Shown: positions 11,441 through 43,495 of the stretch, one piece after another | Layout of the letters: each line of letters starts with the position of its first letter | Numbering within the stretch: the stretch's first letter is position 1 | Assembly (NCBI GenBank): GCA_965216315.1 | Contig: CBDCFN010000016.1 | Span: 2,277,060-2,341,059 of the forward strand | Length of the DNA stretch: 64,000 nucleotides | Origin: a bacterium | Lineage (GTDB): Bacteria > UBA10199 > 2-02-FULL-50-16 > JAJFLM01 | Reading direction: 5' to 3' | Made by a program: the position numbers and the translations under genes | The notes under the pieces: generated by a model | The model's database searches: none | What the model was told of the DNA's origin: nothing | Seen by the model: the letters and a program-made list of their open reading frames with translations, nothing else

Positions 11441-11456
11441 GTGTACTTTAGTACAC
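11441..11456. promoter_or_regulatory. palindromic operator-like site GTGTAC-ttta-GTACAC
   Basis: perfect 6 bp half-sites; preceded by TATAAT on the + strand; in the 445 bp region upstream of paralog 3. Confidence 0.45.
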
Positions 11457-11506
11457 TAACAAGTCTCATTTATTTAACAATTCTAAGCAACTATGATTAG
11501 TCGATT

Positions 11507-12652
11507 CTATAAAGCCGTCTTAAAAGTCCAACTCGTCTGCGGAATACTTTCCCCGCCGTCACAGTCGGTCTCCAGCAGCGTCGCCGTGTACGTCATGTTG
11601 TGCACAAAGGGAAGCGCGTGCGTACACTCAATAACCGTATTGCCAACAAAGAGAACCGACACGCACGCAATCGTGGCAGCCACTTCATCCTCGAGTTTGA
11701 TCTTGCCCGAATCAAACTGGCCGACATCAACGGGGCAACTGACCTTGACCCGTATCTTTTGCAACTCACCTATATCCGTTTCGCCACTAAAAGGAGACGC
11801 TGCGAGCACTCGCGGTCCGGAAGAGGATCCTCCTGCGGAACACGCGGAATCTTCGTCGCCATCATCGGGAAAGCCATCGAGGTCACAGTCCGGCTCTTCC
11901 ACATCAGGAATTCCATCATTATCGTCGTCAGGATCGTCTTTGTCATTGAGGCCATCTCCGTCGCGGTCACTCCACGCGCGCGGATCATTGGCCGCCGTTG
12001 CAATCTTACCTGTGCGCGCAATAGCCCCCAAATCGAGCGGGGTGTCCGAAGCCGGGATGTTGAAAGTATGAAGCGGAACGCCTCCGACTACTGAGACGAC
12101 TAAACGCGATTGGATCGAGCCTGCCGACCAAAAACTCATATGATAAAGTTGATTGGAGGGGACCTCAATACGGAAAGAACAATCGTCTTGAATATCGGAC
12201 TCATGAACCTCTCCATCGGAAGCGGTTAACTTGACGTGGTCGACCCCGCAAATCAGCTTCGGCGGGGTCGCGAAGGAACCGGGACCAGGCGCGGGCGGTT
12301 CCGGCACGGTACTTCCTCCCGTCGTAAACCCCGGGGCCAAACCTACCTGGTCGCCCGCGAATCCAGGATTGTCTCCCGGTGCCGGCTCCTCGTTCCCTGA
12401 AGGGGCCTTTTCTGCAATGAGTTTCAACTGACCCGTCACGAGAGCGATGGGATTGCCGAATTCGGAACCCCCTTGAGGATTACCAAATTCCGAACCTCCC
12501 TGTTCCTGCGGATTACCGAATTCGGAAGCGCCGGTCTTTTCGACCTCAGCCCCAGTGGGGACGTTATCGGGAGAATCAAGACCGCCTCCCGGTACACAGG
12601 ATGTCAGTAGGAATAACAGGGCCGTAATCGAAACAATTGAACGCGCGTGCAT
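11507..12652 (-). CDS. lipoprotein with three GSEFGNP motifs and thrombospondin-type-3-like Asp-rich repeats
   Basis: 381 aa; lipobox LLTSC; GASEFGNPQEQGGSEFGNPQGGSEFGNP; DRDGDGLNDKDDPDDDNDGIPD and DCDLDGFPDDGDED; paralog of 6189-7376. Confidence 0.7.
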   Translation of the reverse strand: MHARSIVSITALLFLLTSCVPGGGLDSPDNVPTGAEVEKTGASEFGNPQEQGGSEFGNPQGGSEFGNPIALVTGQLKLIAEKAPSGNEEPAPGDNPGFAGDQVGLAPGFTTGGSTVPEPPAPGPGSFATPPKLICGVDHVKLTASDGEVHESDIQDDCSFRIEVPSNQLYHMSFWSAGSIQSRLVVSVVGGVPLHTFNIPASDTPLDLGAIARTGKIATAANDPRAWSDRDGDGLNDKDDPDDDNDGIPDVEEPDCDLDGFPDDGDEDSACSAGGSSSGPRVLAASPFSGETDIGELQKIRVKVSCPVDVGQFDSGKIKLEDEVAATIACVSVLFVGNTVIECTHALPFVHNMTYTATLLETDCDGGESIPQTSWTFKTAL

Positions 12653-12701
12653 AGACTCTCCCTTTATACCATGTTGTCCCCCGTCAGGGAATAACTACCG
12701 A

Positions 12702-14180
12702 TTATTGTCTCAACAGCGCACGGCGCCCAAACAACACGCCTAATGCTGCCAAGGCCATCACGAAGAGGCCGAGTGTATTTGCCGCGTGAGGCGTCGCGTT
12801 CAGGCTACAACCACCCGATGTCGCGAGTGATTCACTTTCTTCACCCGTTCCATCACCGACGATAACTTCTTCATTTTCCGCCGGATTCTCTTCCGCATCC
12901 TCTCCCTTATCCGCGTCTATGTTTATAAGTTCGCCTTCACATTGATCATCACAACCGTCGCCATTTTCTTCATTCCCGTCGTCGCAGTCCTCTCCCTCAT
13001 CCACAATACCATTGCCACAGAGACCTTTTTCGAAGGCCCCGACATCCGAACTGACCCCAAGAGGCCTCGGAAAACCGCGCTGGTCTTCAGCCAGCTTGAC
13101 AATGATGGCGGCATCAATAGCGAGGCTGCCGGCTCCAAGCGCATGTGTGCGGGTGTCTCCGCCGTTAAAAGCCAAGGCTTGCAACTTAAGATCGGCACTG
13201 TCGACTCCCGATTGATCCGTCGTTTCCGTAAGGTTACAGGTTCCGTCGACATCAATGTTGCCACCACCCGATGTAATCGTCCCGAGACCACCGGACGTAT
13301 CGCAATTCGCGTCAACGCCGCCGGATCCGTCTACCTGTGCCAACAAACTATTATACAAATTCACTTCGCCATCACCGGCAACGAGATGAGCCGCTAGCAG
13401 GTCAGCACGATTATGATAGAAAGTGACATGCCAGAGATCCACATCGTCCGCGAGACTCACCAGCCCGCCACCGGTCGGCGCCGTATTGTTACTGATCGTG
13501 ACATTCACCAACTTGATGTTGCTAGAGCCCGTTCCAACGGCAACACCGCCACCAAAATCGGCAGCGCTATTGTCGCTGACCAAACAGCGCTCCATATCAA
13601 GCGTTCCGGTTCCTATCGCCAGACCGCCGCCAGCGTCGGCTTCATTGCCGATAAGCTCGACATCACGCAAAATAATATCACCGGATCCATCCGAATAGAT
13701 TCCGGCACCGGGTTCCGTGGGGCTCGATCCACTCTGAATCGAGAGTCGCTCAAAAGTTACGTTCGCATTATTTAAAACGTGAAACACTCGACTGTGTTGA
13801 CCACCACTGATAATCGGCAGAGGCAATTTCTTAAGCGGGATAGCACCCGAACTCAAACTCGGGTCCCCTTGGATGATGACATCATCCGTGATATCAAAAT
13901 CGCGCAGGCCATTCGCATCATCATCGACAAGCATCGTCTCATCGATTCCATAAATGCCGTTGGCAATGATAATCGTATCTTCGCCGGGATTGCTATTCGC
14001 TAGATTAATCGCCGCACGCAAGGTGCATGACGTTCCGCCACCGAGCATGAAGAAACAGATACCACCATCTTCCGTTCGATCCACGGTATAAGTCTCCGCG
14101 TGGACTTGAGCCGCCGCCAACATCGCGACAACCACCGCGCTAATAATTGAGAATTTTTTAATCGTTTCCAGTATACCCAT
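12702..14180 (-). CDS. secreted beta-helix protein with CSLREA-type motif, one Myxococcus-type cysteine-rich repeat and MYXO-CTERM-like C-terminal sorting signal
   Basis: 492 aa; signal peptide; CTLRAAINLAN motif; CGNGIVDEGEDCDDGNEENGDGCDDQC; C-terminus SGGCS...TLGLFVMALAALGVLFGRRALLRQ (Cys motif, hydrophobic helix, basic tail). Confidence 0.75.
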   Translation of the reverse strand: MGILETIKKFSIISAVVVAMLAAAQVHAETYTVDRTEDGGICFFMLGGGTSCTLRAAINLANSNPGEDTIIIANGIYGIDETMLVDDDANGLRDFDITDDVIIQGDPSLSSGAIPLKKLPLPIISGGQHSRVFHVLNNANVTFERLSIQSGSSPTEPGAGIYSDGSGDIILRDVELIGNEADAGGGLAIGTGTLDMERCLVSDNSAADFGGGVAVGTGSSNIKLVNVTISNNTAPTGGGLVSLADDVDLWHVTFYHNRADLLAAHLVAGDGEVNLYNSLLAQVDGSGGVDANCDTSGGLGTITSGGGNIDVDGTCNLTETTDQSGVDSADLKLQALAFNGGDTRTHALGAGSLAIDAAIIVKLAEDQRGFPRPLGVSSDVGAFEKGLCGNGIVDEGEDCDDGNEENGDGCDDQCEGELINIDADKGEDAEENPAENEEVIVGDGTGEESESLATSGGCSLNATPHAANTLGLFVMALAALGVLFGRRALLRQ

Positions 14181-14275
14181 GATCTTTCCTCCAGTTAGAA
14201 ATTTTTCGGTCCTACTAGTTATCGACTCCGGTGGGGTCTAAGTTGAGCGTCAATGAGGAATATTTACCTAAAACA

Positions 14276-14291
14276 GTGTACATGAGTACAC
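14276..14291. promoter_or_regulatory. palindromic operator-like site GTGTAC-atga-GTACAC
   Basis: 96 bp upstream of the 12702-14180 start, in an AT-rich promoter region. Confidence 0.45.
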
Positions 14292-14396
14292 ATATAATCT
14301 TAATAAAACTTAATTATTTTAATTAGTTAGATAATATTTATTTGAGATATTTGCGAAATTGTTGTCCACATAGACTTGTGGAGTCGGACTGAGGGG

Positions 14397-14434
14397 CATA
14401 AAAAAAGGGCCGGGCCCCGAAGAGCCCGACCCAG
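14397..14434 (-). terminator. intrinsic terminator downstream of 14455-14985
   Basis: minus-strand reading gives GGGTCGGGCTCTTCGGGGCCCGGCCC hairpin followed by TTTTTTT (forward A-run 14400-14406). Confidence 0.6.
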
Positions 14435-14454
14435 GTGTGTCTCATGCGTATGGG

Positions 14455-14985
14455 TTAGGTGTTCACAAAAGGATTAACTACCTTTGGCGCTTTCGACGTG
14501 GCTGGTTTGTATGGTCCGCCGCGATAGACGAACGGACTCTGATTCGCCCTCTTGTCGAGCGCGTCGATCTCGTCCGTCGAAAGGCGATGTTCCGCACAAT
14601 AGTCATGAATCTGATCGGATAGCTGCCAATAATTACTGCGATTTCCGGCCTTAATCTGACTGGCCGCTTGCTTCATCATCCCTTCCGCTTCGGCTTTGTA
14701 GAGCGCATGATTTTCCGTGCGTTCCAACGCAACGTTTACGGCACGTAATTTAACCGTTTGTACGTAACTCTCCGGCAAAAAAGAACCGAGTTCTTCCGCC
14801 CGAACGGCCAAATGATCCAAAGCCGCGTCGACAGTGACAAGACTTTCAAACTGGCCGGCCTCAACAAGCTCAACCACGCGCGTCATATCTTCATGTAAAC
14901 GCAGTTCCTGGCGATTCATCTGATTATAATTAATATTCGGTAATTTGTGTGTTGCTCGTATAGACATTGGTCTCCCCCAATACAC
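14455..14985 (-). CDS. hypothetical protein
   Basis: 176 aa ORF with ordinary composition; terminator immediately downstream; no recognised domain. Confidence 0.45.
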   Translation of the reverse strand: MYWGRPMSIRATHKLPNINYNQMNRQELRLHEDMTRVVELVEAGQFESLVTVDAALDHLAVRAEELGSFLPESYVQTVKLRAVNVALERTENHALYKAEAEGMMKQAASQIKAGNRSNYWQLSDQIHDYCAEHRLSTDEIDALDKRANQSPFVYRGGPYKPATSKAPKVVNPFVNT

Positions 14986-15066
14986 TTTGAGTTAATATTT
15001 TAATTCTCCAATGTCGCTTATTATCGGGAGATGCCATTGAAACGTTTCGTCGGCGCCTAAATTAAC

Positions 15067-15082
15067 GTGTACCATGGTCCAC
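15067..15082. promoter_or_regulatory. palindromic operator-like site GTGTAC-catg-GTCCAC (variant half-site)
   Basis: in divergent region between 14455-14985 and 15144-15686. Confidence 0.4.
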
Positions 15083-15143
15083 TAGAATACCTACCACTCG
15101 ACAGATACAACACAACGCACACACAATCGAACCGATAAACTAT

Positions 15144-15686
15144 TTGCATAAGGAGTTTGTCATGAGCATTTATTCACTTCCTAAAACACAGGACGAACAA
15201 AAAAATATTCTGACAGAGTCGGCGTCAGAACAGGAAGAAGACTATTCATTTACCATTGACGGCAACTTAATGGTCGACACGGGGGCCAATATAAGCACGG
15301 ATAAGGCCACCGCTTCGATGACTTTTCAGCTGGGCGGCACTTTCTTTTGGCATCTCCACCCTGACATCTCGCCCGGCTTTTACGTCGGTGCCCGCTATCA
15401 CTTAGTTCCGGAACGCGCCCATCGCGTCCACCGTGTCGGCCTCACTGCGAGTCCCGCGTTGATGATTCATCTAGCACGCACAACAATCATCGCCGAGGGC
15501 GGTCTACGCCCTCAATATAATCACACTGACGCGGCTTTTGATCTCGGCGGCGGAGGTTCCATCAATATTGTATTTTCCGATTGGGGCGTGGGCGTTTTTG
15601 CGGAGCAACACGACATTCTCATGGATAGAATGCGCGATGGCGTGAGTCTTGGTATCCGCCTCTTTACTCATTTTATCCTGTACTAG
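15144..15686 (+). CDS. hypothetical protein
   Basis: 180 aa ORF; GTGTAC-N4-GTCCAC palindrome about 62 bp upstream; start could be the second Met. Confidence 0.45.
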   Translation: MHKEFVMSIYSLPKTQDEQKNILTESASEQEEDYSFTIDGNLMVDTGANISTDKATASMTFQLGGTFFWHLHPDISPGFYVGARYHLVPERAHRVHRVGLTASPALMIHLARTTIIAEGGLRPQYNHTDAAFDLGGGGSINIVFSDWGVGVFAEQHDILMDRMRDGVSLGIRLFTHFILY

Positions 15687-15732
15687 GTCCTATCTTGCTT
15701 CCAGCATTGATTTAGTTTAAAGCTTGGAGCCC

Positions 15733-16572
15733 ATGTCCACCGCGATTTCAATCAAGGGGCTCTACAAGAAGTATGGCAAGTTTGAGGCCTTGCGCAATGT
15801 GGAACTCGAAATCCCACAAGGCGAATTTTTCGGCCTGTTGGGTCCTAATGGGGCCGGTAAAACAACCCTCATCAAGACGATTGTTGGCCTCGCGAAAAAG
15901 AATGCCGGCTCGGTTGAAGTCTGCGGCCTGGATGTCACTCAACACTATATCCGGACACGTGCCTTGATCGGCCTTTCTCCGCAAGAACCCAACGTCGACC
16001 GCTATTTTAAGGTCCGCAAATTGATGGAGTTTCAAGGCGGCTTTTATGGACAGTCACGAACGGAACGGCGGCACCGCACGGAAGAGTTGATTGAACAGTT
16101 CGGATTGACTGAAAAAATTAACACTCAATTCTGGCGGCTCTCCGGCGGCATGCAAAAGCGCGTCATGGTCGCGCGTTCGATGATGGCGTATCCTAAAATC
16201 CTCATCTTAGACGAGCCTACTTCGGGAGTGGATGTGGAACAACGCTATGAACTTTGGGAACAGCTGCGTGGCCTTAATAAAGATGGGACAACGATTATCC
16301 TCACCACTCACTATATTGATGAAGCCGAACAACTCTGCGAACGAGTCGGCATTATTGATCAAGGACAGATCATCGAAATAGGCCCTCCTCAAGAATTGAT
16401 TCAACGGCACTGCCAACAATACTTCATCGTCAATGGCGAACAGCATCAACAAATCAATGGACTGCAAGTCAATGACGTCCAAATTGAAAAAGGCAGCCTC
16501 GAAAAGGTCTTTTTGAAACTGACAGGTCATTCCATTCATCAAGATGAAGCTCGGGAGGACACGTCCGCATGA
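15733..16572 (+). CDS. ABC transporter ATP-binding protein (ABC-2 type)
   Basis: Walker A GPNGAGKTT, ABC signature LSGGMQKR, Walker B ILILDEP; track ORF begins at TTG 15724, ATG 15733 has GGAG SD. Confidence 0.85.
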   Translation: MSTAISIKGLYKKYGKFEALRNVELEIPQGEFFGLLGPNGAGKTTLIKTIVGLAKKNAGSVEVCGLDVTQHYIRTRALIGLSPQEPNVDRYFKVRKLMEFQGGFYGQSRTERRHRTEELIEQFGLTEKINTQFWRLSGGMQKRVMVARSMMAYPKILILDEPTSGVDVEQRYELWEQLRGLNKDGTTIILTTHYIDEAEQLCERVGIIDQGQIIEIGPPQELIQRHCQQYFIVNGEQHQQINGLQVNDVQIEKGSLEKVFLKLTGHSIHQDEAREDTSA

Positions 16573-18150: not shown

Positions 18151-18723
18151 TCAAACTGGTCTGTCTAATTTTTTATATGTTAGCTTTTTTTCGTCTGGAA
18201 TCACGGGGATGAGTTCGATCGACATCGTCATCATCTCTTCAGGAACGACATCATCGTCGACTAAATTGAGAAGTTTACTCCGAAACTCTCGGATTATTTT
18301 TTTGAGTTGAGGCAAGTTATCTCTAATGATTCCAAAAGTAATCTCACTTAAATCGCGTTTACCCTGATCGAGGCTGAGTGTTTGAAGGCGATGCACATTA
18401 CGAATAGCCATCAGTTCTAGATAGTGTTCCTTAATTTCGTCAGGGCTCTCAGCCTGATTTAAGAAGACGAGATGCCGAAAATACTCCGCTTCGTCGTCTT
18501 CCAAGCGCAAACCTCGAATAAATTTTCTTAAACTTTTTAGTGTTAGGTTGCGGTCGCCATCCATAACGAGCTTGAGGATATTAGAAGAACCAAACCCGGC
18601 ATGTTGTGAAAAGATACGGAGAGAAAATCCGTAGGTCAGGCGCTTGGCACTCTCATACCAGTCCTTGAGAAAAGTCCTATAATCGAGATAATCATAGACA
18701 CAGATGTCGGATACAATATTCAT
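18151..18723 (-). CDS. XRE-type HTH protein, TIGR02147/DUF4423-like paralog 4, shortened (about 190 aa versus about 283)
   Basis: YDYLDYRTFLKDWYESAK...SLRIFSQHAGFGSSNILKLVMDGDRNLT conserved; central block present in the other four copies is missing; start taken at rc ATG 18721-18723; no lipoprotein partner downstream. Confidence 0.6.
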   Translation of the reverse strand: MNIVSDICVYDYLDYRTFLKDWYESAKRLTYGFSLRIFSQHAGFGSSNILKLVMDGDRNLTLKSLRKFIRGLRLEDDEAEYFRHLVFLNQAESPDEIKEHYLELMAIRNVHRLQTLSLDQGKRDLSEITFGIIRDNLPQLKKIIREFRSKLLNLVDDDVVPEEMMTMSIELIPVIPDEKKLTYKKLDRPV

Positions 18724-18936
18724 GCTAAACCTGTATCCGCTTTGATGCCCACTTTCCTTATCGGTCAAAGCCAAATTTTGTTTTCAACTATTTTTAATTT
18801 TTTGAAAAAACTCTTAATTTCAGCGACTTATAATGACTACGAGGCAGGCGGAACGGACCGCAGCCTCTCGGTCCGCCCGCCAGCAGTGCTATCGCACCGG
18901 TCATACCCTCGCGATAGGTGGAGTCATTTTCATCGA

Positions 18937-22337: not shown

Positions 22338-22353
22338 GTGGACCTAGGTACAC
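22338..22353. promoter_or_regulatory. palindromic operator-like site GTGGAC-ctag-GTACAC (variant half-site)
   Basis: 114 bp upstream of 22467-22880; a further GGTACACA half-site at 22368-22375. Confidence 0.4.
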
Positions 22354-22466
22354 TGAGAATTATTTCAGGTACACAACAACGCCTCCACTCAAACCGATAA
22401 AACCCAACGTAGTCATTTATAAAAACTAACAGAGAGTCATCAAATACTCATCGTTAAGGAGATCTC

Positions 22467-22880
22467 ATGAAACCGCGTATCGTATCTAAAGAACAGTTTA
22501 ATAATATGACCAGCAAAGAGGTCTGCGGTGACGCCTGGACCGGACCTCAAGTCGAAGACAAAGGCAAAATAGGCACGCTTGAGCTGACGGACGGTCAGGT
22601 TGTTCATCCTATTTGTGGCATGCAAACCTCACCTGCCGGACCCGACGGCGAGCTGATCAGCATTGACCGTACTTGGTACGATGGAAACAGCGGACATTTA
22701 TCTAATGTTCGTTGGTACTTTAGCGCTAACCCTACTTACAATTCCTTTTCGAATGAATCGCCGCTGACGCGTTTAAAAGATGTCCTTCAAGCCAATCCGA
22801 ACATCACTAATGTGTCTTCGAACCTGTGGAAATACATTACACAGCAGGAGATCATCTGGAACAACATGTCCGAATGTTAA
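22467..22880 (+). CDS. hypothetical protein
   Basis: 137 aa ORF with RBS AAGGAG upstream; GTGGAC-N4-GTACAC palindrome 114 bp upstream. Confidence 0.45.
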   Translation: MKPRIVSKEQFNNMTSKEVCGDAWTGPQVEDKGKIGTLELTDGQVVHPICGMQTSPAGPDGELISIDRTWYDGNSGHLSNVRWYFSANPTYNSFSNESPLTRLKDVLQANPNITNVSSNLWKYITQQEIIWNNMSEC

Positions 22881-29238: not shown

Positions 29239-29275
29239 GTGAACAACGTGAACATATATTGTTTACGTTGTTCAC
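29239..29275. promoter_or_regulatory. large inverted repeat GTGAACAACGTGAACA-tatat-TGTTTACGTTGTTCAC in divergent promoter region
   Basis: 16 bp arms matching 15/16 with 5 nt AT spacer; the left arm carries a tandem CGTGAACA direct repeat. Confidence 0.5.
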
Positions 29276-29333
29276 ACTATTGTGGGCTCAAAAGGAAATT
29301 GCACCTCTGCCCGGAATGGCATAGAGCTGCTGC

Positions 29334-29837
29334 ATGGCGACCAAGATCTTCATCGACGGCTACAATCTCCTCTGGGCCTCCGACACCCATCGCCCCGAGG
29401 CGATTCGCAACTTCGAGCACTCACGCGAAGAGTTGATCCAACGCCTCGCCGGCAGTCCGCGGCTCGCGCGCCATCAAGTCACAATTGTTTTTGACGCGCA
29501 CAAAACGGACGCCTACGACCTGAGTTCAGAAACCATCGATGGGATTGAGGTCCAGTTTACCAGGCAGGGCCAATCCGCCGACAGCGTGCTCAAAAAGCTG
29601 GCGCGTCAACATGGCAGTGCGGCCGTCATCATTAGTTCGGATCGAGAAGTCGCGCGTTATGCGGAAAAAAGGGGTTGCGGCGTATTAGGCTCTCATGAAT
29701 TTGACCTCCTCTTGGATAGTCCACCGGCCAGTGAGGATGACGCCTTCGAGGACGCCGACGAGATCAGTTATAGCAAAAAAGGACCCGCGCGCCGTGACCC
29801 CAAAGCACGGCGTCGCGCCCTCGCGCGGCTGCGCTAG
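29334..29837 (+). CDS. NYN-domain (YacP-like) predicted RNA-binding nuclease
   Basis: N-terminus KIFIDGYNLLWA matches YacP/NYN family starts; 167 aa; basic C-terminal tail. Confidence 0.65.
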   Translation: MATKIFIDGYNLLWASDTHRPEAIRNFEHSREELIQRLAGSPRLARHQVTIVFDAHKTDAYDLSSETIDGIEVQFTRQGQSADSVLKKLARQHGSAAVIISSDREVARYAEKRGCGVLGSHEFDLLLDSPPASEDDAFEDADEISYSKKGPARRDPKARRRALARLR

Positions 29838-30725: not shown

Positions 30726-31700
30726 TTAGGACCCTGACATCACGACACCGCGAGGCGGGGTAAAGGTCAAGTGCCCGCGTCCCGCCTGGGTAAAGGCCAT
30801 CGAGCGCAAGATTTCATGAGGGGTCGAGGTTGCGTCATCCACGGTCGCCAAGAGAACGTAGCCACAACCGGCGTGATACGCCGACCCCTTTTTATAAGGG
30901 ACGGGATGGTATTCGGTGCCCTCAATGACGTACGGATCCCCTCCCTCGCCGGCTTGGGGAATGCCTGCCTGACCCACGGGGGCTATCATGACATTGTCGA
31001 AGGTCCGCGTATAGGTCACACCCTCCGCCGTGCGTCCCGTCACTCCCAGCTGTCCTGCCACCGGGTTAAAAGGGCCCTGGAGAGGAAGACGAATCGAATC
31101 ACTGGAAAGATGGGACGTCCCGCCAAAACGAATGTCGCTGGCCAGATAAACCTGAGCCCCGTCGCTACCTTCCACCGTCTTACCGGCGATCGAGACGAGG
31201 AGCCCCTCGAGCTCCGTCGATTGACTCAAGGCCGTCTGAATATCACGGACCAGTGCCTGCTCCTGGCTGTCACTAAGATCCAATCCCGAGGCGAAGACCT
31301 GCACGCGGTCCAGAGACGCCATGGTCAGCCCCTCGGTATTCGCAACCGTCGCATCGAGATAAATCATCAAGGATCCGGTATCGAGACGGGTGTAGCGATC
31401 GCCCAAGGCTCCGGTCAGGGTCTCTCCCACGATTCGATTGACCTCCGGATTGGAGAGGCGATGGCCGGGGTCCGACATGGGCGGCGTCGACGCTGAAGAG
31501 GCCGGGAGGGTCCGTGCCATCACGGATGTACCGCCGTTGGCACCTGAAGACCCCGCCATCGCTTGAAACGAACGGCTTACCTCGGCCTCCGTCATAGTTG
31601 GCTCGGCCGCTACGGCGGTATCACTGGATACAAATTGTGCTGTATTGATATCGGCCATGGTGCGAACCATGGCGCTTCCTTGAATAATTGTTTCAGACAT
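30726..31700 (-). CDS. hypothetical protein
   Basis: start at MSETIIQ with GGAGG SD; 5' UTR and upstream operator nearly identical to those of 42867-43409; no recognised domain. Confidence 0.5.
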   Translation of the reverse strand: MSETIIQGSAMVRTMADINTAQFVSSDTAVAAEPTMTEAEVSRSFQAMAGSSGANGGTSVMARTLPASSASTPPMSDPGHRLSNPEVNRIVGETLTGALGDRYTRLDTGSLMIYLDATVANTEGLTMASLDRVQVFASGLDLSDSQEQALVRDIQTALSQSTELEGLLVSIAGKTVEGSDGAQVYLASDIRFGGTSHLSSDSIRLPLQGPFNPVAGQLGVTGRTAEGVTYTRTFDNVMIAPVGQAGIPQAGEGGDPYVIEGTEYHPVPYKKGSAYHAGCGYVLLATVDDATSTPHEILRSMAFTQAGRGHLTFTPPRGVVMSGS

Positions 31701-31769
31701 TACACACCTCCATGCCTTATTTATTTTCGTCACAATACTCAGGGCAGTTGTGAATGGCGCCGAGATTCA

Positions 31770-31786
31770 GTGTACTCTCAGTACAC
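31770..31786. promoter_or_regulatory. palindromic operator-like site GTGTACT-ctc-AGTACAC
   Basis: 70 bp upstream of 30726-31700 start; the extended 19 bp match CGTGTACTCT-N-AGTACACG is shared with 43478-43496. Confidence 0.5.
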
Positions 31787-31950
31787 GATATTATATGTTA
31801 TAACTATTTGTTTTTATTTATTATTCTATCTATTCTATTTTTTATGTGATTATATATGAAGGAGTTAAAAGTACACGAGGCGAGAACGCAGCAACTTAGA
31901 ATTAATGCCGTCGATAAGACCTCGACTCAAGTGAGGGAGGCTTGTGTGGT

Positions 31951-38084: not shown

Positions 38085-39007
38085 TGTTCGCAGACCTGTC
38101 TCGAAAAAAGCTCATCCTCGTCTCCGGTAAAGGGGGCGTCGGCAAAACGACGATCAGCGCGGCGCTCGCCTGGCACTTAAGCCAGGCTGGCCGCAAGGTC
38201 CTGCTCGCTACGATCGATTGCGAGGACCAAATCCCCTCCCTCTTTGACCGCAAGCCGATGGGCTATGAACCGAGTCCACTCCGCCCCCAACTCTCCGGCA
38301 TCAACATTACCGCCCGTAAGGCTTTTGAAGAATATGTCGTCCGACAGATCATGTTTCACTCGATCTATTCAGCCGTCTTCGACAATAAATACGTGCGCGC
38401 TTTTATTGAGGGCACCCCGGGCATGGCGGAGCTCATGTGCATCGGTAAGGTCTACGACATGGTCGATGAATACGACACGATCGTGCTCGATGCCCCCGCA
38501 ACCGGACATGGTAAGTCGCTCCTCCAAGTCCCGACGGTTGTTGCCGAAGCCGTCCGGGTTGGTCCTCTGAAGACAAATTCCGAGAAAATTGAAGCCCTTC
38601 TTAAGGACTCAACAAAAACCGGCCTGCTCATCGTCAGTCTTGCCGAGGAAATGCCGGTTGAGGAGACCCTCGAACTGCGGGAATGGATCCAAAGCCATCT
38701 CGGCATTGAGCCAACCGGGGTTATCATTAACGGCCTGTTTACACCGTTGTTCCCCCACCACTCCGATCAAGAACGATGTGAGACTTTTTTCCGCGAACAC
38801 AACTCCAACCCCGTCATGGAAGGCTTACGTCATAGCTATTATATGCGCATGAAACGCTCGGAGCTCCATGCGCACTACACGCAACAGCTGCAAGAACAAC
38901 TTAAAGGGCTCCCAACCGTAGAAATCCCGTTTTATTTTTGCGAATCTATTGGGACAACTGAGCTCAAAGACATTGGAGAACGCATCGAAAGCCATGAATC
39001 AACGTAA
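38084..39007 (+). CDS. ArsA/GET3-family P-loop ATPase (single domain), copy 1
   Basis: GTG start overlapping PhaR-like stop; deviant Walker A VSGKGGVGKTT; DAPATGH switch motif. Confidence 0.75.
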   Translation: MFADLSRKKLILVSGKGGVGKTTISAALAWHLSQAGRKVLLATIDCEDQIPSLFDRKPMGYEPSPLRPQLSGINITARKAFEEYVVRQIMFHSIYSAVFDNKYVRAFIEGTPGMAELMCIGKVYDMVDEYDTIVLDAPATGHGKSLLQVPTVVAEAVRVGPLKTNSEKIEALLKDSTKTGLLIVSLAEEMPVEETLELREWIQSHLGIEPTGVIINGLFTPLFPHHSDQERCETFFREHNSNPVMEGLRHSYYMRMKRSELHAHYTQQLQEQLKGLPTVEIPFYFCESIGTTELKDIGERIESHEST

Positions 39008-40124
39008 AGGCAAACCCAAACTCTCCGCACTGATCCAATCCCAGGAGATTCTCGTCGTCTGTGGCAGCGGTGGCGTCGGCAAAACAACCTCGGCGGCCGC
39101 CATCGCAATGCAAGCGGCCATGATCGGCAAACGAGCTATCGTCCTCACGATTGATCCCGCCAAGAGATTGGCTTCTTCAATGGGTCTCGAGGCCCTCACG
39201 GATGAACCGATGCAAATACAGGACGATTATTTTCCGAGCCCGCCTAAGGGATCGCTCCATGCCATGATGCTCGATACCAAACGGACCTTTGATCGTATCA
39301 TCGAAAAATATGCCCCCTCGGTGGAGGCACGACAGGCCATCTTGGAGAACCGTCTCTATCAACAAATGTCCAATATGCTCGCCGGCTCGCATGAGTACAT
39401 GGCCATGGAACGACTGTATGAAATCCACCATGATGGTAATTTCGATCTGGTCGTCCTGGATACGCCACCGACGCGTAACGCCCTTAATTTTCTCGACTCA
39501 CCTAAAAAAATGGTCGACCTGACGCGCCACTCCGTCATCAAGTGGTTTCTTAAACCAGGGGTCTTTGCCGGCAAAGTCAGCTTTGGGCTCTTCCAAAAAA
39601 CAGCGGAAAAAGTCCTCAATGTCTTCGATCAACTTGCCGGTTTTAGTTTTCTCCATGAGCTAGCGGAAATGATTAGCGGCATGGCCGATATGTTGGGGGG
39701 GTTTGGTGAACGCGCCGAAAAGATTTATGAGCTGCTACGCTCGTCAAAAGTCAGTTTCATCTTAGTCGCTACTCCTGAAAAAATGGCATTGCAAGACGCA
39801 CGCTACTTTCATGAGCAGATCGGCGAATATGAATTACCTCTCGCCGGTTTTGTATTTAACCGGGTCTATCCGAATTACATTCCATCGGAGGAAGCGATTG
39901 AAGAGGCCAGGGCCCAACTCAAATCACTCCCCAACAACGTCGAAATCGGCTTGATCAAGAATCTTGAGGACTTTTTTATGCTGCAAAAGAGACATGAATT
40001 GAGCATCAAGGAATTCAAAAAGGCATGTGGCTCCAAGACCTTCTACACGTCCGTCCCTTTTTTAGAGACGGACGTGCATGACATGGAAGGACTTGCCGAA
40101 ATTAATCGGTATTTATTCGCTTAA
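38994..40124 (+). CDS. ArsA/GET3-family P-loop ATPase (single domain), copy 2
   Basis: Walker A CGSGGVGKTT, LDTPPTRN motif; ORF track start 38949, ATG 38994 chosen to minimise overlap. Confidence 0.75.
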   Translation: MNQRKGKPKLSALIQSQEILVVCGSGGVGKTTSAAAIAMQAAMIGKRAIVLTIDPAKRLASSMGLEALTDEPMQIQDDYFPSPPKGSLHAMMLDTKRTFDRIIEKYAPSVEARQAILENRLYQQMSNMLAGSHEYMAMERLYEIHHDGNFDLVVLDTPPTRNALNFLDSPKKMVDLTRHSVIKWFLKPGVFAGKVSFGLFQKTAEKVLNVFDQLAGFSFLHELAEMISGMADMLGGFGERAEKIYELLRSSKVSFILVATPEKMALQDARYFHEQIGEYELPLAGFVFNRVYPNYIPSEEAIEEARAQLKSLPNNVEIGLIKNLEDFFMLQKRHELSIKEFKKACGSKTFYTSVPFLETDVHDMEGLAEINRYLFA

Positions 40125-40125
40125 A

Positions 40126-40710
40126 CTATCCGAAGTATTCTTTGAGGCCTTCACTGTTCGGCTTCATCGACTTCTCACCCTCTTGCCAGTTGGCCGGGCA
40201 AACTTCGCCGTGTTTCTCATGAAACTGCAGGGCCTCCACCATGCGAAGGGCCTCATCCACGCTGCGGCCTAATGGCAGATCATTGACCACTTGATGACGC
40301 ACTTTACCATCCTTATCGATCAAGAAGAGACCACGATAGGCAATACCCGCACCTGGAACAAGCACGTCATAATCAGCGGCAATCGACTTACTCAGATCGG
40401 ATACCAACGGATACGTCACGCCTTCGATACCACCGACTTTCTTAGGTGTATTGACCCACGCCAGATGAGAGAAATGTGAATCAACTGAACATCCAATAAC
40501 TTGAACATCCTTGGCTTCAAATTCGGCCAGCTTCTCTTGAAAGGCATGGATTTCAGTCGGACATACAAAAGTAAAATCGAGGGGATAGAAAAAAAGTACG
40601 ACATACTTCTTCCCCTTGAATTGCGACAAGGTAAATCCATCTTGGATATCGCCATTGACAACCGCGTTAGCTTTAAAATCTGGAGCCGGTTTTCCGACTA
40701 GTACACTCAT
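40126..40710 (-). CDS. typical 2-Cys peroxiredoxin (AhpC/Tsa family)
   Basis: FFYPLDFTFVCPTE peroxidatic Cys motif and C-terminal resolving Cys (EVCPANW). Confidence 0.9.
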   Translation of the reverse strand: MSVLVGKPAPDFKANAVVNGDIQDGFTLSQFKGKKYVVLFFYPLDFTFVCPTEIHAFQEKLAEFEAKDVQVIGCSVDSHFSHLAWVNTPKKVGGIEGVTYPLVSDLSKSIAADYDVLVPGAGIAYRGLFLIDKDGKVRHQVVNDLPLGRSVDEALRMVEALQFHEKHGEVCPANWQEGEKSMKPNSEGLKEYFG

Positions 40711-40737
40711 GATTCACTCCTTTTTATCATCTTGTGA

Positions 40738-41154
40738 TTACGTTGTTGCTATACAATCTTGACAAATCCCCGTGAGAACAACTGAGACAGAGTCGACACG
40801 ATTGTTTGTCCTTTTTTCAAAATCTTTAAAAGTAGGCAGCCCACCCTCATCGGGAATATCTAAAATCGCGTGGCATTCCGAACAACAGAAATGGTGATGA
40901 GGCTTTGTCTCCGGGTCGAAACTGACCTGATCTTCGTAAAACTTATATTTTCGGACCAAGCCCAATTCACTCAACATGTTGAGCGTATTATAAACAGTGG
41001 CCATGCTCATCGTCGGGTAGGCCGGCTTGAGATCTTCGTAAACCCGCGCCGCAGTGGGATGGGACCTGTTGCCCTCCATATAATCGACGATCGAGAGGCG
41101 CTGCGGGGTAAGCTTGAAACCTGATTCCTTCAATTTTTCAGTGAGTTGGCTCAT
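40738..41154 (-). CDS. Fur-family metalloregulator, likely PerR-type given adjacent peroxiredoxin
   Basis: Fur-type HTH (LKLTPQRLSIVDYM), HHHFCC..C metal-site motifs; 138 aa; 21 bp palindrome immediately upstream. Confidence 0.8.
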   Translation of the reverse strand: MSQLTEKLKESGFKLTPQRLSIVDYMEGNRSHPTAARVYEDLKPAYPTMSMATVYNTLNMLSELGLVRKYKFYEDQVSFDPETKPHHHFCCSECHAILDIPDEGGLPTFKDFEKRTNNRVDSVSVVLTGICQDCIATT

Positions 41155-41158
41155 TACT

Positions 41159-41179
41159 AATTAAGAATAATTCTTAATT
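41159..41179. promoter_or_regulatory. perfect 21 bp palindrome AATTAAGAAT-A-ATTCTTAATT, candidate Fur/PerR-type operator for the regulator-peroxiredoxin operon
   Basis: 7-1-7/10-1-10 inverted repeat architecture resembling Fur/PerR boxes, located 5 bp upstream of the regulator start codon. Confidence 0.55.
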
Positions 41180-41217
41180 TAGAATTATTATAACTTAGAA
41201 CAAGGAAGTCAAGGGGC

Positions 41218-41556
41218 CTATTCAGCCGTGTACGCCACGATGGCCTCATGGTCCGTGGAGCCAAGGTCGATAAAACGGATCCCGAGTCCGGAGACACCAG
41301 GATAAGTAGGGGCCAGCTTTTCGAGCCGAACCACCTCGCCGGTCGTACGAATCGGCGCCTCCGTCGGCCCCAATGAAAAAGAAAGAAACATCTTCGTACC
41401 TAATTTGAGTGGAATTTCCGACTCGATAAACAGGCCACCCAAACTAATATCCGTTGTATAGAAGTAAATAAATCCTTCTCCGAATTCATCTTCGAGAACA
41501 ACTTGAGTTCTCAAAGTCTTGCGCGGATGAATGCGTTTTTCAGATGCGTCTGCCAT
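41218..41556 (-). CDS. PilZ domain protein (putative c-di-GMP receptor)
   Basis: RIHPRK (RxxxR) and DISLGG (D-x-S-x-x-G) motifs; 112 aa. Confidence 0.7.
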   Translation of the reverse strand: MADASEKRIHPRKTLRTQVVLEDEFGEGFIYFYTTDISLGGLFIESEIPLKLGTKMFLSFSLGPTEAPIRTTGEVVRLEKLAPTYPGVSGLGIRFIDLGSTDHEAIVAYTAE

Positions 41557-41990
41557 TAGCCTTTGGCACTCCTTTTAAGTCGCCGTTTCTTAGGGGCCGG
41601 CGCCGGTTCTGTCGAACCACTGAGCGGATGAAATTTAGAAGCCACTCGATTGATGACGGTGATCAAGTCGTAAGGATAAAACGGCTTCGGCACGAGCTCG
41701 ACCTTGTCTTCTTCGCGAGCCAACTCTTTGAGATCCATCCGTTGCGGGCCACTGATCAACACCGTCGGATATTCATCGATAAAGGCCGGCCGGCCTTCCT
41801 GCTCGATCGCATTGCCATTAATGAGAATCACGTGAGGTTTCGCTCGGCGTTGGCGGGCATCCAGACCGTCTGCACTCTCGGCAAATTCAATCCGATAACC
41901 GGGCAGATCCCTGAAGAGCAGCCCATACATATTCTTGGCTAATTCCGAGCGATCAATGATCAAAAGACGCAAAGTAGAGGTGCGACGCAT
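41556..41990 (-). CDS. response-regulator receiver-like protein (divergent REC domain)
   Basis: LLIIDRSE...VILINGN pattern like CheY-fold receivers; basic C-terminal tail; overlaps PilZ start by 1 nt. Confidence 0.5.
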   Translation of the reverse strand: MRRTSTLRLLIIDRSELAKNMYGLLFRDLPGYRIEFAESADGLDARQRRAKPHVILINGNAIEQEGRPAFIDEYPTVLISGPQRMDLKELAREEDKVELVPKPFYPYDLITVINRVASKFHPLSGSTEPAPAPKKRRLKRSAKG

Positions 41991-42185
41991 GGGAGAGAAC
42001 CTACTTCAATAGGACGCGGATGACAAGCCTTACGAAAAAGGCGTCATAGGTGGGCCAGGGGTGGGATTTGCTCGCTACGCTCACCGCAATCTAAGGAATT
42101 ACATCCTGGTCTTCGCCTTCGGCGAAGCGGATTGTCGAACCCACTGCCTGTGGCAGGGGCTTCTCATCCTCCACTACAAATAAAA

Positions 42186-42215
42186 ATAAGGACCCCAGTT
42201 AGGGTCCTTATTTTT
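42186..42215 (-). terminator. intrinsic terminator downstream of tRNA-Ser(GCU), hairpin flanked by A and T runs on both sides
   Basis: AAGGACCC-cagtta-GGGTCCTT perfect 8 bp stem flanked by AAAAAT and ATTTTTAT. Confidence 0.65.
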
Positions 42216-42218
42216 ATG

Positions 42219-42305
42219 CGGAGAGGGTGGGATTCGAACCCACGGTGCAGTTTCCCGCACACTTCCTTAGCAGGGAAGCGCCTTCAGCCACTCGGCCACC
42301 TCTCC
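42219..42305 (-). tRNA. tRNA-Ser (anticodon GCU)
   Basis: acceptor GGAGAGG/CCTCTCC, anticodon stem CTTCC/GGAAG with loop CTGCTAA, long variable arm, T-arm GGTTCGAATCC; 87 nt. Confidence 0.9.
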
Positions 42306-42552
42306 GATCCGAAAACGAAAGCGCAGCTTCCGCTTTCTTTAGTTAAGGGGAAGATACTGCTCTCCCCCTTAACTATCCCTCATCTGTCATAATCGCCTCA
42401 ATTTCAAGATATTTTCTAAGGAGGGGGTACCAGCGAGCGCAGCGAGTGTCCGTAGGGGGAACCTGGGTTCCCCCTCGGAAATATTCGAAAGTGACAATTG
42501 GATTCAATCTATGAGCTTCGTTTTAGCGAAGCCCTCTAGGTCACTACAGATG

Positions 42553-42637
42553 CGGAGGGGGTGGGATTCGAACCCACGGTACCTTGCGGCACGGCGGTTT
42601 TCAAGACCGCTGCCTTCAACCACTCGGCCACCCCTCC
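42553..42637 (-). tRNA. tRNA-Ser (anticodon UGA)
   Basis: acceptor GGAGGGG/CCCCTCC, anticodon stem GCGGT/ACCGC with loop CTTGAAA, long variable arm, T-arm GGTTCGAATCC; 85 nt. Confidence 0.9.
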
Positions 42638-42805
42638 AATTCGCCAGCGAAAGCATGAGCTTTCACTGGCCTTAGTTAAGGGGGGAGATAAGGGCCTCCC
42701 CCCCTAACAATTCCCCTCTGTCTTGTTCAGACGGGGGTACGGAGAAGTGTCACATCCTAGCGACGTTGAAGTATGTTGGCAAGTCAGGTGTTCATTTACA
42801 CACCC

Positions 42806-42826
42806 AAAAAGCCCCTCGCGGGGCTC
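42806..42826 (-). terminator. intrinsic terminator downstream of 42867-43409
   Basis: minus-strand GCCCC-GCGA-GGGGC hairpin followed by TTTTT. Confidence 0.55.
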
Positions 42827-42866
42827 TTGGGGTGTGTATTGGGTGATGTAAAGAAAAACTTTCAAC

Positions 42867-43409
42867 TTATTTTGCGTCAGCCACGACTCCAGTATCCAAA
42901 TTAAGGTAGTGACGGTGTCTTCCCGTCGCATCTGTATAGACAAGCTTAACTTCATGGTCGTTACGCCCTGCCGTAATACGGACATTCCGCTTAATGTAAT
43001 TGAAGCCATTTAGGTCGCGATCAAATTTTCCAATAGTTGAACCAATCAATCGATACTGACCATCCGACATCAACGCAGACGTTTCTTCCCAGCCAGAACC
43101 GTCACCCCAATACCGTGTATTATCATCTCTACGGGTTAGGGATACGAAATGACGGTCCAAAGTTTTTTGGGCTCTTTTGCTGGTCTTGTAGCGTGTGTCA
43201 TGATCGAGTCGATTTTTACATAGATCATCCAGTGCCCTCCGAGGATCGATTGAGCGCTCGACTCCATCGATTGTTTGGCAAAACGCATCCCCTTCATCGA
43301 CAACCCCATTCTCATTGAGATCACGAACTCTCATGCCAGCGGGATTATTAGAATTGTACTCGTCGACAGATACCTGTTTAAATAACTTCGGATTCTTTAT
43401 TTCCGCCAT
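42867..43409 (-). CDS. hypothetical protein
   Basis: start at MAEIKNPKLF with GGAGG SD; 5' UTR and operator nearly identical to those of 30726-31700; terminator downstream. Confidence 0.5.
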   Translation of the reverse strand: MAEIKNPKLFKQVSVDEYNSNNPAGMRVRDLNENGVVDEGDAFCQTIDGVERSIDPRRALDDLCKNRLDHDTRYKTSKRAQKTLDRHFVSLTRRDDNTRYWGDGSGWEETSALMSDGQYRLIGSTIGKFDRDLNGFNYIKRNVRITAGRNDHEVKLVYTDATGRHRHYLNLDTGVVADAK

Positions 43410-43478
43410 CACACACCTCCATGCTTTTCAAATTTTCGTCAGTATTGACACGAGAGTTGCTACAAGAGAGGTATTTCC

Positions 43479-43495
43479 GTGTACTCTAAGTACAC
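43479..43495. promoter_or_regulatory. palindromic operator-like site GTGTACT-cta-AGTACAC
   Basis: 70 bp upstream of 42867-43409 and 78 bp upstream of paralog 5. Confidence 0.5.

Follow-up and report, generated by a model that had tools for sequence, protein, structure and literature searches.

Our comparison of a 64-kb bacterial window (the whole stretch of DNA analysed here) with 86 unrelated metagenome or MAG loci indicates that the palindromes GTGTAC-N4/5-GTACAC found in this window (class A) are most likely DNA-binding sites of the TIGR02147/DUF4423 regulators encoded beside them. To the whole model, in which TIGR02147 dimers bind the palindromes and exert class-I-type activation of lineage-specific genes, we assign a probability of about 0.7. 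The window encodes five TIGR02147/DUF4423 proteins and the genome no fewer than seven, as chromosomal paralogs with no linkage to restriction-modification (R-M) genes, and we found no description of the function of this large family in the literature. The proteins are about 280 aa long and combine an N-terminal XRE-like HTH, a winged helix and a helical DUF4423 part.

Class A is represented by four perfect and two one-mismatch copies (Table 1), all six lying where the first-pass annotation had placed them and, as it had also claimed, outside genes, within the intergenic share of roughly 8% (a greedy ORF map assigns 92% of the window to coding sequence). All perfect GTNNNC-N4/5-GNNNAC palindromes that the window contains are likewise intergenic. 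That these sites exceed chance is borne out by the counts: with up to two mismatches the N4 form is observed 5 times against 0.59 expected, a number reached by 0 of 100 shuffles, while the N5 form is observed 3 times against 0.71 expected, two of the three being perfect; by arithmetic, about 0.008 perfect copies are expected per 64 kb, versus the 4 observed. The sites fall into 16-bp and 17-bp spacing classes, and their half-site centres are separated by 10-11 bp, the spacing with which an HTH dimer would contact a single face of the DNA. The match common to A5 and A6, previously given as 19 bp, is in fact 18 bp long (GTGTACTCT-N-AGTACACG), since the two sites do not agree in the base that flanks it on the 5' side (A versus C). 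A weak seventh copy with two mismatches (GGGTATGATAGTACAC, positions 43569-43584) has no conserved counterpart in the close relative. Four further sites form a second palindrome class, GTTGAC-N4-GTCAAC (class B), that the first-pass annotation had missed; B4 is located within a long ORF call, yet upstream of an in-frame ATG (5832) preceding the LysM domain.

Table 1. Palindromes, predicted sigma-28-like promoters, TIGR02147/DUF4423 paralogs and predicted target genes in the window.
Feature	Coordinates	Strand	Sequence or motif	Context
A1	11441..11456		GTGTACTTTAGTACAC (N4)	28 nt upstream of GCATCC-N16-CGATAAC (minus); 379 bp upstream of paralog 3
A2	14276..14291		GTGTACATGAGTACAC (N4)	29 nt upstream of TCAACT-N16-CGATAAC (minus), gene 12702-14180
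A3	15067..15082		GTGTACCATGGTCCAC (1 mismatch)	Divergent promoters: minus side, 18-nt gap to GAAACG-N16-CGATAAT, gene 14455-14967; plus side, 28-nt gap to CACAAC-N16-CGATAAA, gene 15144/15162-15686
A4	22338..22353		GTGGACCTAGGTACAC (1 mismatch)	19 nt upstream of ACAACA-N16-CGATAAA (plus), gene 22467-22880
A5	31770..31786		GTGTACTCTCAGTACAC (N5)	18 nt upstream of ACAACT-N16-CGAAAAT (minus), gene 30726-31700
A6	43479..43495		GTGTACTCTAAGTACAC (N5)	18 nt upstream of GCAACT-N16-CGAAAAT (minus), gene 42867-43409; 78 bp upstream of divergent paralog 5
B1	2845..2860		GTTGACTCAAGTCAAC	17 nt upstream of TACAAC-N16-CGATAAC (minus), lipoprotein gene 2015-2794
B2	4768..4783		GTTGACCCAGGTCAAC	18 nt upstream of GCAACG-N16-CGATAAG (plus), gene 4861-5463; about 200 bp upstream of divergent paralog 1
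B3	5550..5565		GTTGACTGACGTTAAC (1 mismatch)	18 nt upstream of GCAACA-N16-CGATAAC (plus), before LysM-protein ORF 5652-6179
B4	5712..5727		GTTAACTTACGTCAAC (1 mismatch)	27 nt upstream of AACAAC-N16-CGATAAT (plus)
Promoter	2800..2827	-
Promoter	4802..4829	+
Promoter	5584..5611	+
Promoter	5755..5782	+
Promoter	11385..11412	-
Promoter	14219..14246	-
Promoter	15021..15048	-
Promoter	15111..15138	+
Promoter	22373..22400	+
Promoter	31724..31751	-
Promoter	43433..43460	-	GCAACT-N16-CGAAAAT
Promoter	4618..4643	-		No palindrome
Promoter	18758..18782	-		No palindrome
Promoter	31893..31917	+		No palindrome
Paralog 1	3721..4569	-	Helix KSSNIFKLV	Candidate binder of class B sites
Paralog 2	7373..8233	-	Helix KSSNYIMLV
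Paralog 3	10214..11062	-	Helix KSWNFIMMV	Candidate binder of 16-bp class A sites
Paralog 4	18151..18774	-	Helix GSSNILKLV	Short, without central winged-helix part
Paralog 5	43573..44427	+	Helix KSTNFIMLV	Candidate binder of 17-bp class A sites
Target of A2	12702..14180	-		Secreted beta-helix / choice-of-anchor-Q / Cys-rich-repeat protein
Target of A3, minus	14455..14967	-		Orphan protein
Target of A3, plus	15144..15686	+		No family match
Target of A4	22467..22880	+		No family match
Target of A5	30726..31700	-		No family match
Target of A6	42867..43409	-		No family match

Each palindrome precedes the -35 of a predicted sigma-28-like promoter, nCAACn-N16-(C)CGATAA, by 17-19 or 27-29 nt, which places its centre near -61.5 or -72. 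All ten window palindromes are flanked by CGAWAA at +39-41 or +49-51 in one or both directions, giving 11 predicted promoters, with a -35 of CAAC in contrast to the canonical sigma-28 TAAA; neither fliA nor flagellar genes were seen within the window. Several predicted promoters of this kind in the window stand without a palindrome (Table 1), which speaks against the model. The TATAAT-like hexamers previously noted next to the sites are present, but a sigma-70-type promoter was called at none of the six class A sites, and it is a different promoter motif that stands at a fixed distance from each of them. In the metagenome loci, a sigma-70-type TTG begins 18-20 nt past 24 of the 39 non-redundant palindromes (the usual gap being 18 nt), with TAnnnT in the proper place after it. 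Phylogenetic footprinting, proposed earlier as a check, gave a positive result at A6: the 85%-identical ortholog (loci L003 and L004) retains both the palindrome and the minus-strand GCAACT-N16-CGAAAAT promoter, the -35 and -10 of which are conserved in L003. The promoter of paralog 5 itself is not definable from the window and the comparison with this relative.

A dimer bound near -61.5 or -72 would most likely recruit or stabilise RNA polymerase by class-I-type activation, the 27-29 nt gap representing one helical turn more than the 17-19 nt gap. The geometry of the sites appears to fit such activation better than repression, and since they lie upstream of the -35 without overlapping the TATAAT box, the term "operator" used in the first-pass annotation is not the best reading in its repressor sense. 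That the same protein acts at the same sites as a repressor or dual regulator is nevertheless a serious, if considerably less probable, interpretation. In that case the dimer upstream of the -35 would either block contact between the UP element and alpha-CTD or form oligomers that cover the promoter, with repression lifted by a ligand that the DUF4423 part senses. Characterised XRE-family proteins are mostly repressors, and several local features agree with this, namely an A/T-rich AGAAA/AGATAA stretch just after the palindromes, at the position expected of an UP element, a degenerate GTATAC half-site downstream of the predicted -10 near paralog 1, and the palindrome of locus L087, a mere 16 nt before the start codon, which suggests auto-repression there and thus that the regulatory sign may vary among promoters. 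However, the distance of 18 nt to the -35 (with its +10 variant) is strictly conserved between the two promoter types and among highly divergent loci, a hallmark of face-of-helix contact with the polymerase and not of steric occlusion; moreover, the window palindromes never overlap a -35 or -10, and many of the -35 hexamers that go with them are poor, a trait of promoters that depend on an activator.

The identity of the binding protein is suggested by the distribution of the palindromes throughout the family. In 38 of 79 unrelated loci, the TIGR02147 gene is preceded within 250 bp by a perfect symmetric GTRTNC-N4/5-GNAYAC, which amounts to 41 matches in 19.8 kb upstream compared to 5 in 355 kb elsewhere (2.07 versus 0.014 per kb, an enrichment of about 147-fold). 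All generic GTNNNC palindromes upstream of TIGR02147 genes are of this type; one-mismatch sites occur in about a dozen additional loci, and about a third of the family loci have no recognisable site. Furthermore, the operator sequence varies together with the recognition helix, as counted per 80%-identity cluster over 33 clusters. G at operator position 3 is paired with M or L in the helix in 9/9 clusters, and A with K or Q in 19/20 (Fisher 1e-6, a statistic that ignores phylogeny), while the GTTGAC operator accompanies the SSNIFK helix in 4/4 clusters. This co-variation holds within one closely related clade bearing four operator types, and the operator type was correctly forecast from the helix sequence for three new loci out of three. 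In an AF2 model (pLDDT 81), which comprises the XRE-like HTH and the winged-helix domain, the co-varying residues are situated in the third helix. Taken with the enrichment, these comparisons support the earlier proposal that the XRE-like TIGR02147 paralogs are the probable binders. It is improbable that an unrelated transcription factor binds the palindromes and controls TIGR02147 genes with their neighbours by coincidence: four of the six class A sites have no TIGR02147 gene next to them, as such a factor would allow, but the arm sequence follows the TIGR02147 helix and permits forecasts, the association spans loci labelled Fibrobacterota, 'Deltaproteobacteria' and unclassified, and no other regulator gene is consistently near the sites among the loci examined.

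We consider it very unlikely that the palindromes are RNA hairpins (terminators, attenuators or processing sites) instead of DNA sites. Four of them do fold at -7.4 to -9.3 kcal/mol (z -2.7 to -5.5), symmetric changes in the arms would also preserve a stem, and A2 was listed as weakly terminator-like; yet A3 and A4, at -2.1 and -5.3 kcal/mol, respectively, are no better than shuffles, the mismatches are not G-U compensations, and a T-run is absent save for a weak one at A2, the real terminator of the gene upstream being at 14407-14432. In addition, the sites are upstream of predicted promoters, the GT...AC ends and exact two-fold symmetry found family-wide are not required by an RNA stem, and Rfam yielded no match. 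That the sites are mere chance matches, or stem from the spread of a small repeat or mobile element, can practically be dismissed, for although A5 and A6 are embedded in homologous modules of roughly 80 nt, the other sites have only the palindrome and promoter motifs in common, with unlike flanks, the chance expectation is below 1, and the same motif class occurs upstream of homologous genes in unrelated metagenomes.

Under the favoured model of TIGR02147 dimers acting as activators, we infer direct binding through the N-terminal XRE-like HTH, the recognition helix (..S-x-N-F-x-M-L-V in paralogs 2, 3 and 5) reading each half-site of GTGTAC-N4/5-GTACAC and that of the paralog-1 subfamily (S-S-N-I-F-K-L-V) reading the sister class GTTGAC-N4-GTCAAC. 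As a working assignment, the 17-mers would belong to paralog 5, the 16-mers to paralog 3 and the GTTGAC sites to paralog 1, and class B sites do occur alongside paralog-1-like genes in four other loci (L084, L085, L086 and L087). For paralog 2 the helix code predicts a GTGTnC-type specificity; no palindrome was found upstream of paralogs 2 and 4. The sites look like dimer sites, as the first-pass annotation had proposed, but its single binder has probably to be replaced by more than one paralog, given the two spacing classes and the second operator class. The paralog genes would themselves be auto-regulated via divergent or upstream promoters.

The genes that the bound dimers would switch on appear to be lineage-specific secreted, lipoprotein and orphan genes, and the comparative evidence agrees with the earlier view that the sites mark uncharacterised genes. 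The secreted-protein gene predicted to be controlled from A2 is followed by a lipoprotein gene (11507-12652), and a search of 5.8 billion sequences for homologs of the minus-direction A3 target returned only itself. In L003, a gene occupies the same divergent position as the A6 target behind the conserved promoter, and protein-level homology between the two was not detected.

A regulator accompanied by palindromic sites is an already known kind of arrangement. R-M controller (C) proteins have an XRE-type HTH and recognise, as dimers, short palindromic boxes in front of their own gene, which they autoregulate, including by activation. C.AhdI, C.Esp1396I and C.BclI have this HTH type in common with TIGR02147, the N-terminal domain of which has 1y7y and 3clc among its best fold/sequence matches (probability 0.97-0.99, with weak E-values of 0.1-0.4) and matches C.BclI weakly. 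However, C proteins are single-domain proteins of about 80 aa with tandem C-boxes, whereas TIGR02147 proteins carry the additional winged-helix and helical parts and have single 16/17-mers. RRNPP-type XRE regulators such as PlcR and Rgg are activators with a palindromic box upstream of secreted-protein promoters, and their C-terminal TPR domain senses a peptide. TIGR02147 proteins similarly join an XRE HTH to a larger C-terminal domain, but it is composed of a winged helix and helices without TPR, and no peptide-signal gene is evident. The putative position of the palindrome centres, near -61.5 or one turn further, resembles CRP-type class I activation (-61.5, -71.5), as do the two-fold symmetry, the 16-17 bp length and the half-site spacing, although the TIGR02147 fold is unrelated, the window promoter is sigma-28-like instead of sigma-70 and the alpha-CTD contact is putative. 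Finally, the (C)CGATAA -10 recalls the FliA (sigma-28) attack-phase promoters of Bdellovibrio bacteriovorus (TTAAG-N16-CCGATA), which are also broadly used for non-flagellar surface, secreted and unknown genes (PMC3627812); the window -35 is CAAC and not TTAAG/TAAA, and the sigma assignment is tentative. Bdellovibrio likewise has a DUF4423 protein, Bd3700; the literature we found describes no activator site upstream of its FliA promoters. With the sites described here, the uncharacterised TIGR02147/DUF4423 family gains a testable motif and a specificity code.

All six palindromes that the first-pass annotation had described are present, four of them as perfect copies of GTGTAC-N4/5-GTACAC and the remaining two (15067 and 22338) with one mismatch each; we refer to them as class A. 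The form with a 4-nt spacer occurs five times in the window when up to two mismatches are allowed, against 0.59 times in shuffled sequences (none of 100 shuffles held five or more), and the form with a 5-nt spacer three times, two of them perfect, against 0.71. The placement outside genes also held up, since all six are intergenic on a greedy ORF map even though 92% of the window is coding, and perfect palindromes of the wider type GTNNNC-N4/5-GNNNAC are intergenic without exception. Two-fold symmetry, over-representation and confinement to intergenic DNA near promoters are the features of sites bound by dimeric helix-turn-helix transcription factors. The Fibrobacter LexA box, which we take to be TGCNC-N4-GTGCA, was dropped as an identity for the palindromes because the sequences do not match. 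The TATAAT-like hexamers reported beside the sites are indeed adjacent to them, but they were rejected as -10 boxes, as a sigma-70 consensus scan called none of the sites a promoter and gave a total close to expectation (15 matches against 12.5). Elsewhere in the window, a perfect intergenic palindrome belongs to neither class A nor the class B described below, and a 37-nt imperfect palindrome probably serves another regulator (both in the table).

Features of the window discussed in the text, with coordinates (class A sites by first position)
Feature	Position (strand)	Remarks
TIGR02147/DUF4423 paralog 1	3721-4569
TIGR02147/DUF4423 paralog 2	7373-8233
TIGR02147/DUF4423 paralog 3	10214-11062
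TIGR02147/DUF4423 paralog 4	18151-18774	short
TIGR02147/DUF4423 paralog 5	43573-44427
Class A site A1	11441	N4; adjoins paralog 3
Class A site A2	14276	N4; target is a secreted beta-helix / choice-of-anchor-Q protein (12702-14180, -), then a lipoprotein
Class A site A3	15067	N4; targets are two divergent genes, no assigned function
Class A site A4	22338	N4; target without assigned function
Class A site A5	31770	N5; target without assigned function
Class A site A6	43479	N5; target without assigned function; also adjoins paralog 5
Class B site	2845-2860
Class B site	4768-4783
Class B site	5550-5565	one mismatch
Class B site	5712-5727	one mismatch
Promoter motif, example	4802-4829 (+)
Promoter motif, example	14219-14246 (-)
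Promoter motif, example	22373-22400 (+)
Promoter motif, example	43433-43460 (-)
Promoter motif, example	63899-63925 (-)	adjoins trigger-factor C-terminal ORF; may be spurious
GGTE(F/A)GNP lipoprotein	2015-2794 (-)
GGTE(F/A)GNP lipoprotein	2871-3734 (-)
GGTE(F/A)GNP lipoprotein	6189-7376 (-)
GGTE(F/A)GNP lipoprotein	11507-12652 (-)
GGTE(F/A)GNP lipoprotein	44412-45065 (+)
Homologous module with A5	31700-31786
Homologous module with A6	43409-43495
Leader	11063-11384	between A1-linked promoter and paralog 3 start
Other palindrome, perfect	283-299	GTCGGCTTTGAGCCGAC
Other palindrome, imperfect	29239-29277	GTGAACAACGTGAACAT-ATAT-TGTTTACGTTGTTCAC; upstream of YacP-like NYN-domain gene (29334-29837)

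At all ten palindromes of the window, the sequence CGA(T/A)AA begins 39-41 or 49-51 nt from the palindrome edge on at least one side, with a hexamer nCAACn 16 nt before it, and the distance from the palindrome to this predicted -35 is 17-19 nt at six promoters and 27-29 nt at five. Among the 11 promoters linked to a palindrome, nine have nCCGATAA or CGATAA as the -10 element and two have CGAAAAT, in agreement with the -10 of sigma-28 (FliA), GCCGATAA. The combined motif AAC-N16-18-CGAWAA is found at 13 intergenic places in the window, each oriented towards a gene start at most 70 nt away. Compared with the FliA-type attack-phase promoters of Bdellovibrio, TTAAG-N16-CCGATA (PMC3627812), the -10 is similar but the -35 is different: the sigma-28 element (TAAA; TTAAG in Bdellovibrio) is absent about 15-16 nt upstream, where nCAACn stands instead, resembling the AAC of ECF-type promoters. 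Because of this -35 we file the promoter as sigma-28-like or ECF-like rather than as an established FliA promoter. In other organisms, TTG starts 18-20 nt after the palindrome at 24 of 39 non-redundant sites, and a TAnnnT hexamer then follows at sigma-70 spacing. An A/T-rich AGAAA/AGATAA stretch lies beside the palindrome on its promoter side. With predicted transcription starts and standard promoter numbering, the palindrome centre would fall at about -61.5 in both arrangements, or at about -72 with the longer gap.

Inspection of the DNA upstream of other promoters of the same type revealed a second operator class, GTTGAC-N4-GTCAAC (class B), whose four copies are all grouped around paralog 1, are each followed by AGATAA and have the same spacing to sigma-28-like promoters as class A. 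Three independent contigs encode proteins that share the recognition helix SSNIFKLV with paralog 1 and are 69-75% identical to it; each of these contigs has GTTGAC-type palindromes, including one upstream of the paralog-1-like gene. At a more distant comparison locus, L087, a GTTGAC-type site likewise accompanies a paralog-1-like gene. These sequences link class B to the paralog-1 subfamily of TIGR02147. At another comparison locus (L085, 300-720), three tandem class B modules are spaced about 170 nt apart, each followed by a hairpin and a T-run, and may represent short transcripts, each with a terminator of its own, ahead of a paralog-1-like gene.

If a factor contacts RNA polymerase from the upstream side, its distance to the promoter should stay constant, as it does here in diverged loci and with two types of promoter; this favours activation, which we infer as the preferred mode of action. 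That the TIGR02147 proteins act instead as repressors, or as dual-action regulators, is less probable; such a role would fit L087, where only 16 nt separate the correctly predicted GTTGAC site (9100-9115) from the start codon of the regulator gene and a degenerate copy lies just upstream, and is at odds with the constant upstream spacing at two types of promoter. The L087 arrangement indicates that the geometry varies within the family, and perhaps the sign of autoregulation as well. Some 2 kb from the TIGR02147 gene of a further locus, L086, a stand-alone RNA polymerase alpha C-terminal domain protein of 94 aa (PF03118; 2013-2297) is encoded, intriguing beside the alpha-CTD-type geometry proposed for these candidate activators.

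The candidate activators, the TIGR02147/DUF4423 proteins, number five in the window, with two further paralogs outside it on the same 2.4 Mb contig. Paralogs 3 and 5 score 278 and 256 bits with NCBIfam TIGR02147 (curated cut-off 50 bits), and in tblastn these two share 41-54% identity with paralogs 1 and 2; in the C-terminal half, Pfam PF14394 (DUF4423) gives 138 bits for paralog 3 against a cut-off of 30, and only 27.6 bits for paralog 4, a truncated protein. The Pfam helix-turn-helix (HTH) models do not match the TIGR02147 proteins. An AlphaFold (AF2) model built from 19 sequences (pLDDT 81) shows a predicted N-terminal XRE-like HTH, a central winged-helix unit and long C-terminal helices, the N-terminal helices 16-30, 36-43, 50-55 and 63-72 having pLDDT above 90. 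Foldseek related the N-terminal region to NHTF, C.AhdI, lambda cI and C.Esp1396I with probabilities of 0.97-1.0 and weak E-values (0.1-0.4), and the middle part to MarR-like proteins, also with a weak E-value, the matches covering sub-domains only. A sequence search of the PDB returned nothing significant, and none of the solved homologs spans the full length of the protein. At the standard distance upstream of their own promoters, paralogs 1, 2 and 4 have neither a class A nor a class B palindrome; paralog 1 has only a doubtful GTATAC-AGG-GTATAA downstream of the predicted -10. The leader before paralog 3, of about 320 nt and partly G+C-rich, contains a single, doubtful ORF of 73 codons and has no Rfam match; Rfam finds three tRNAs and nothing else in the whole window.

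For comparison, loci were collected from genomes (2), metagenomes (80) and by exact protein look-up (8); the genome contig search with paralog 5 returned only two loci, both from distant Fibrobacterota, and the metagenome search used a 7-sequence alignment as query. Clustered at 50% identity, this large family has 14,328 representatives at E<=1e-10, and its loci are labelled Fibrobacterota, 'Deltaproteobacteria' and Bdellovibrionales, often with several paralogs per genome. In the literature searched we found TIGR02147/DUF4423 as a mere name in one proteomics table, with no functional description. In the 250 bp that precede the TIGR02147 gene, 38 of 79 loci have a perfect symmetric GTRTNC-N4/5-GNAYAC, and about a dozen further loci have versions with one mismatch; the motif occurs 41 times in 19.8 kb of upstream DNA and five times in the remaining 355 kb, a roughly 147-fold difference. 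Upstream of family genes the arms are of the types GTATAC, GTATTC, GTGTTC, GTGTAC and GTATCC, and both arms always change symmetrically. Phylogenetic footprinting, as the first-pass annotation had advised, agrees with this association: a MAG with an 85%-identical ortholog of paralog 5 retains GTGTACTCTGAGTACAC at the same position.

Arm and protein also change together. The helix S-P-N-F-L-K-L-V goes with the operator arm GTATnC, T-S-N-F-x-M-L-V with GTGTTC and S-[TWS]-N-F-x-M-L-V with GTGTAC; counted over 80%-identity clusters, operator position 3 is G with M/L in the helix in 9/9 clusters and A with K/Q in 19/20 (Fisher 1e-6, kinship ignored), and the switch of arm is seen also inside one closely related clade. 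In the AF2 model, the co-varying residues of segment 47-55 belong to helix 50-55 and the three residues preceding it. Operators predicted from the helix were correct at all three loci unseen beforehand: GTTGAC for P0134 (found: GTTGACTCCAGTCAAC), GTGTTC for P0158 (GTGTTCAAATGAACAC) and GTATWC for P0171 (GTATACGACCGTATAC). These predictions and the helix/arm co-variation make it unlikely that an unrelated protein binds the palindromes, and they support the XRE-like paralogs, proposed from the start, as candidate binders. Isoleucine was rejected as the determinant of GTTGAC, since locus L090, with helix KSTNIFKLV, has a GTATAC site, which makes the code provisional at that position.

Formation of an RNA hairpin or terminator is disfavoured, as two sites fold like shuffled sequences and are unstable, the stems have only three GC pairs, five of the six palindromes lack a T-run, and the sites are located upstream of predicted promoters. 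A repeat element is excluded, except for the homologous modules that hold A5 and A6. These modules, of about 80 nt, are about 76% identical to one another and to a relative (L003, 1219-1296), and consist of the 17-bp palindrome, GCAACT-N16-CGAAAAT and a 5' UTR ending in GCATGGAGGTGTGTRATG; the proteins downstream appear unrelated. The match common to the two sites is 18 bp, not 19 bp as previously given.

The predicted targets of class A are listed in the table, and those of class B are a lipoprotein, an unassigned gene and a LysM protein. The A3 target 14455-14967 (-) has no homolog but itself among 5.8 billion proteins, and no homolog was therefore available for a footprint of this non-regulator target; its product is a true orphan under candidate palindrome control. 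At its C-terminus the secreted A2 target has GGCS, then a hydrophobic stretch and a tail rich in Arg, which we take to resemble a MYXO-CTERM sorting signal; this end, together with a Cys-rich acidic repeat (TIGR02232), hints at a Myxococcota/Bdellovibrionota-like lineage. Paralogous lipoproteins with N-terminal GGTE(F/A)GNP repeats are encoded mostly beside or immediately downstream of a TIGR02147 paralog, which suggests regulator-lipoprotein gene pairs.

A regulator with palindromic sites is a system of an ordinary kind. Our most far-reaching reading, to which we give a probability of about 0.45, is that TIGR02147/DUF4423 would be a large family of upstream-binding (class-I-like) activators. 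On this reading, divergence of the paralogs would have produced mutually orthogonal pairs of protein and operator (GTATAC, GTATTC, GTGTTC, GTGTAC, GTATCC and GTTGAC) set by two or three recognition-helix residues; in this lineage the activators would be coupled to sigma-28-type promoters, and each paralog would gate a few lineage-specific genes of its own, for secreted proteins, lipoproteins or orphans. To our knowledge, activators are not usually thought necessary for the sigma-28 class. What is new is a first motif, geometry and specificity code for a large family without assigned function: the consensus site, fixed geometry and helix code turn a 'domain of unknown function' into a testable hypothesis. 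Regulons with orphan secreted targets become predictable in uncultured lineages, and the naturally orthogonal protein-operator pairs are possible parts for synthetic circuits.
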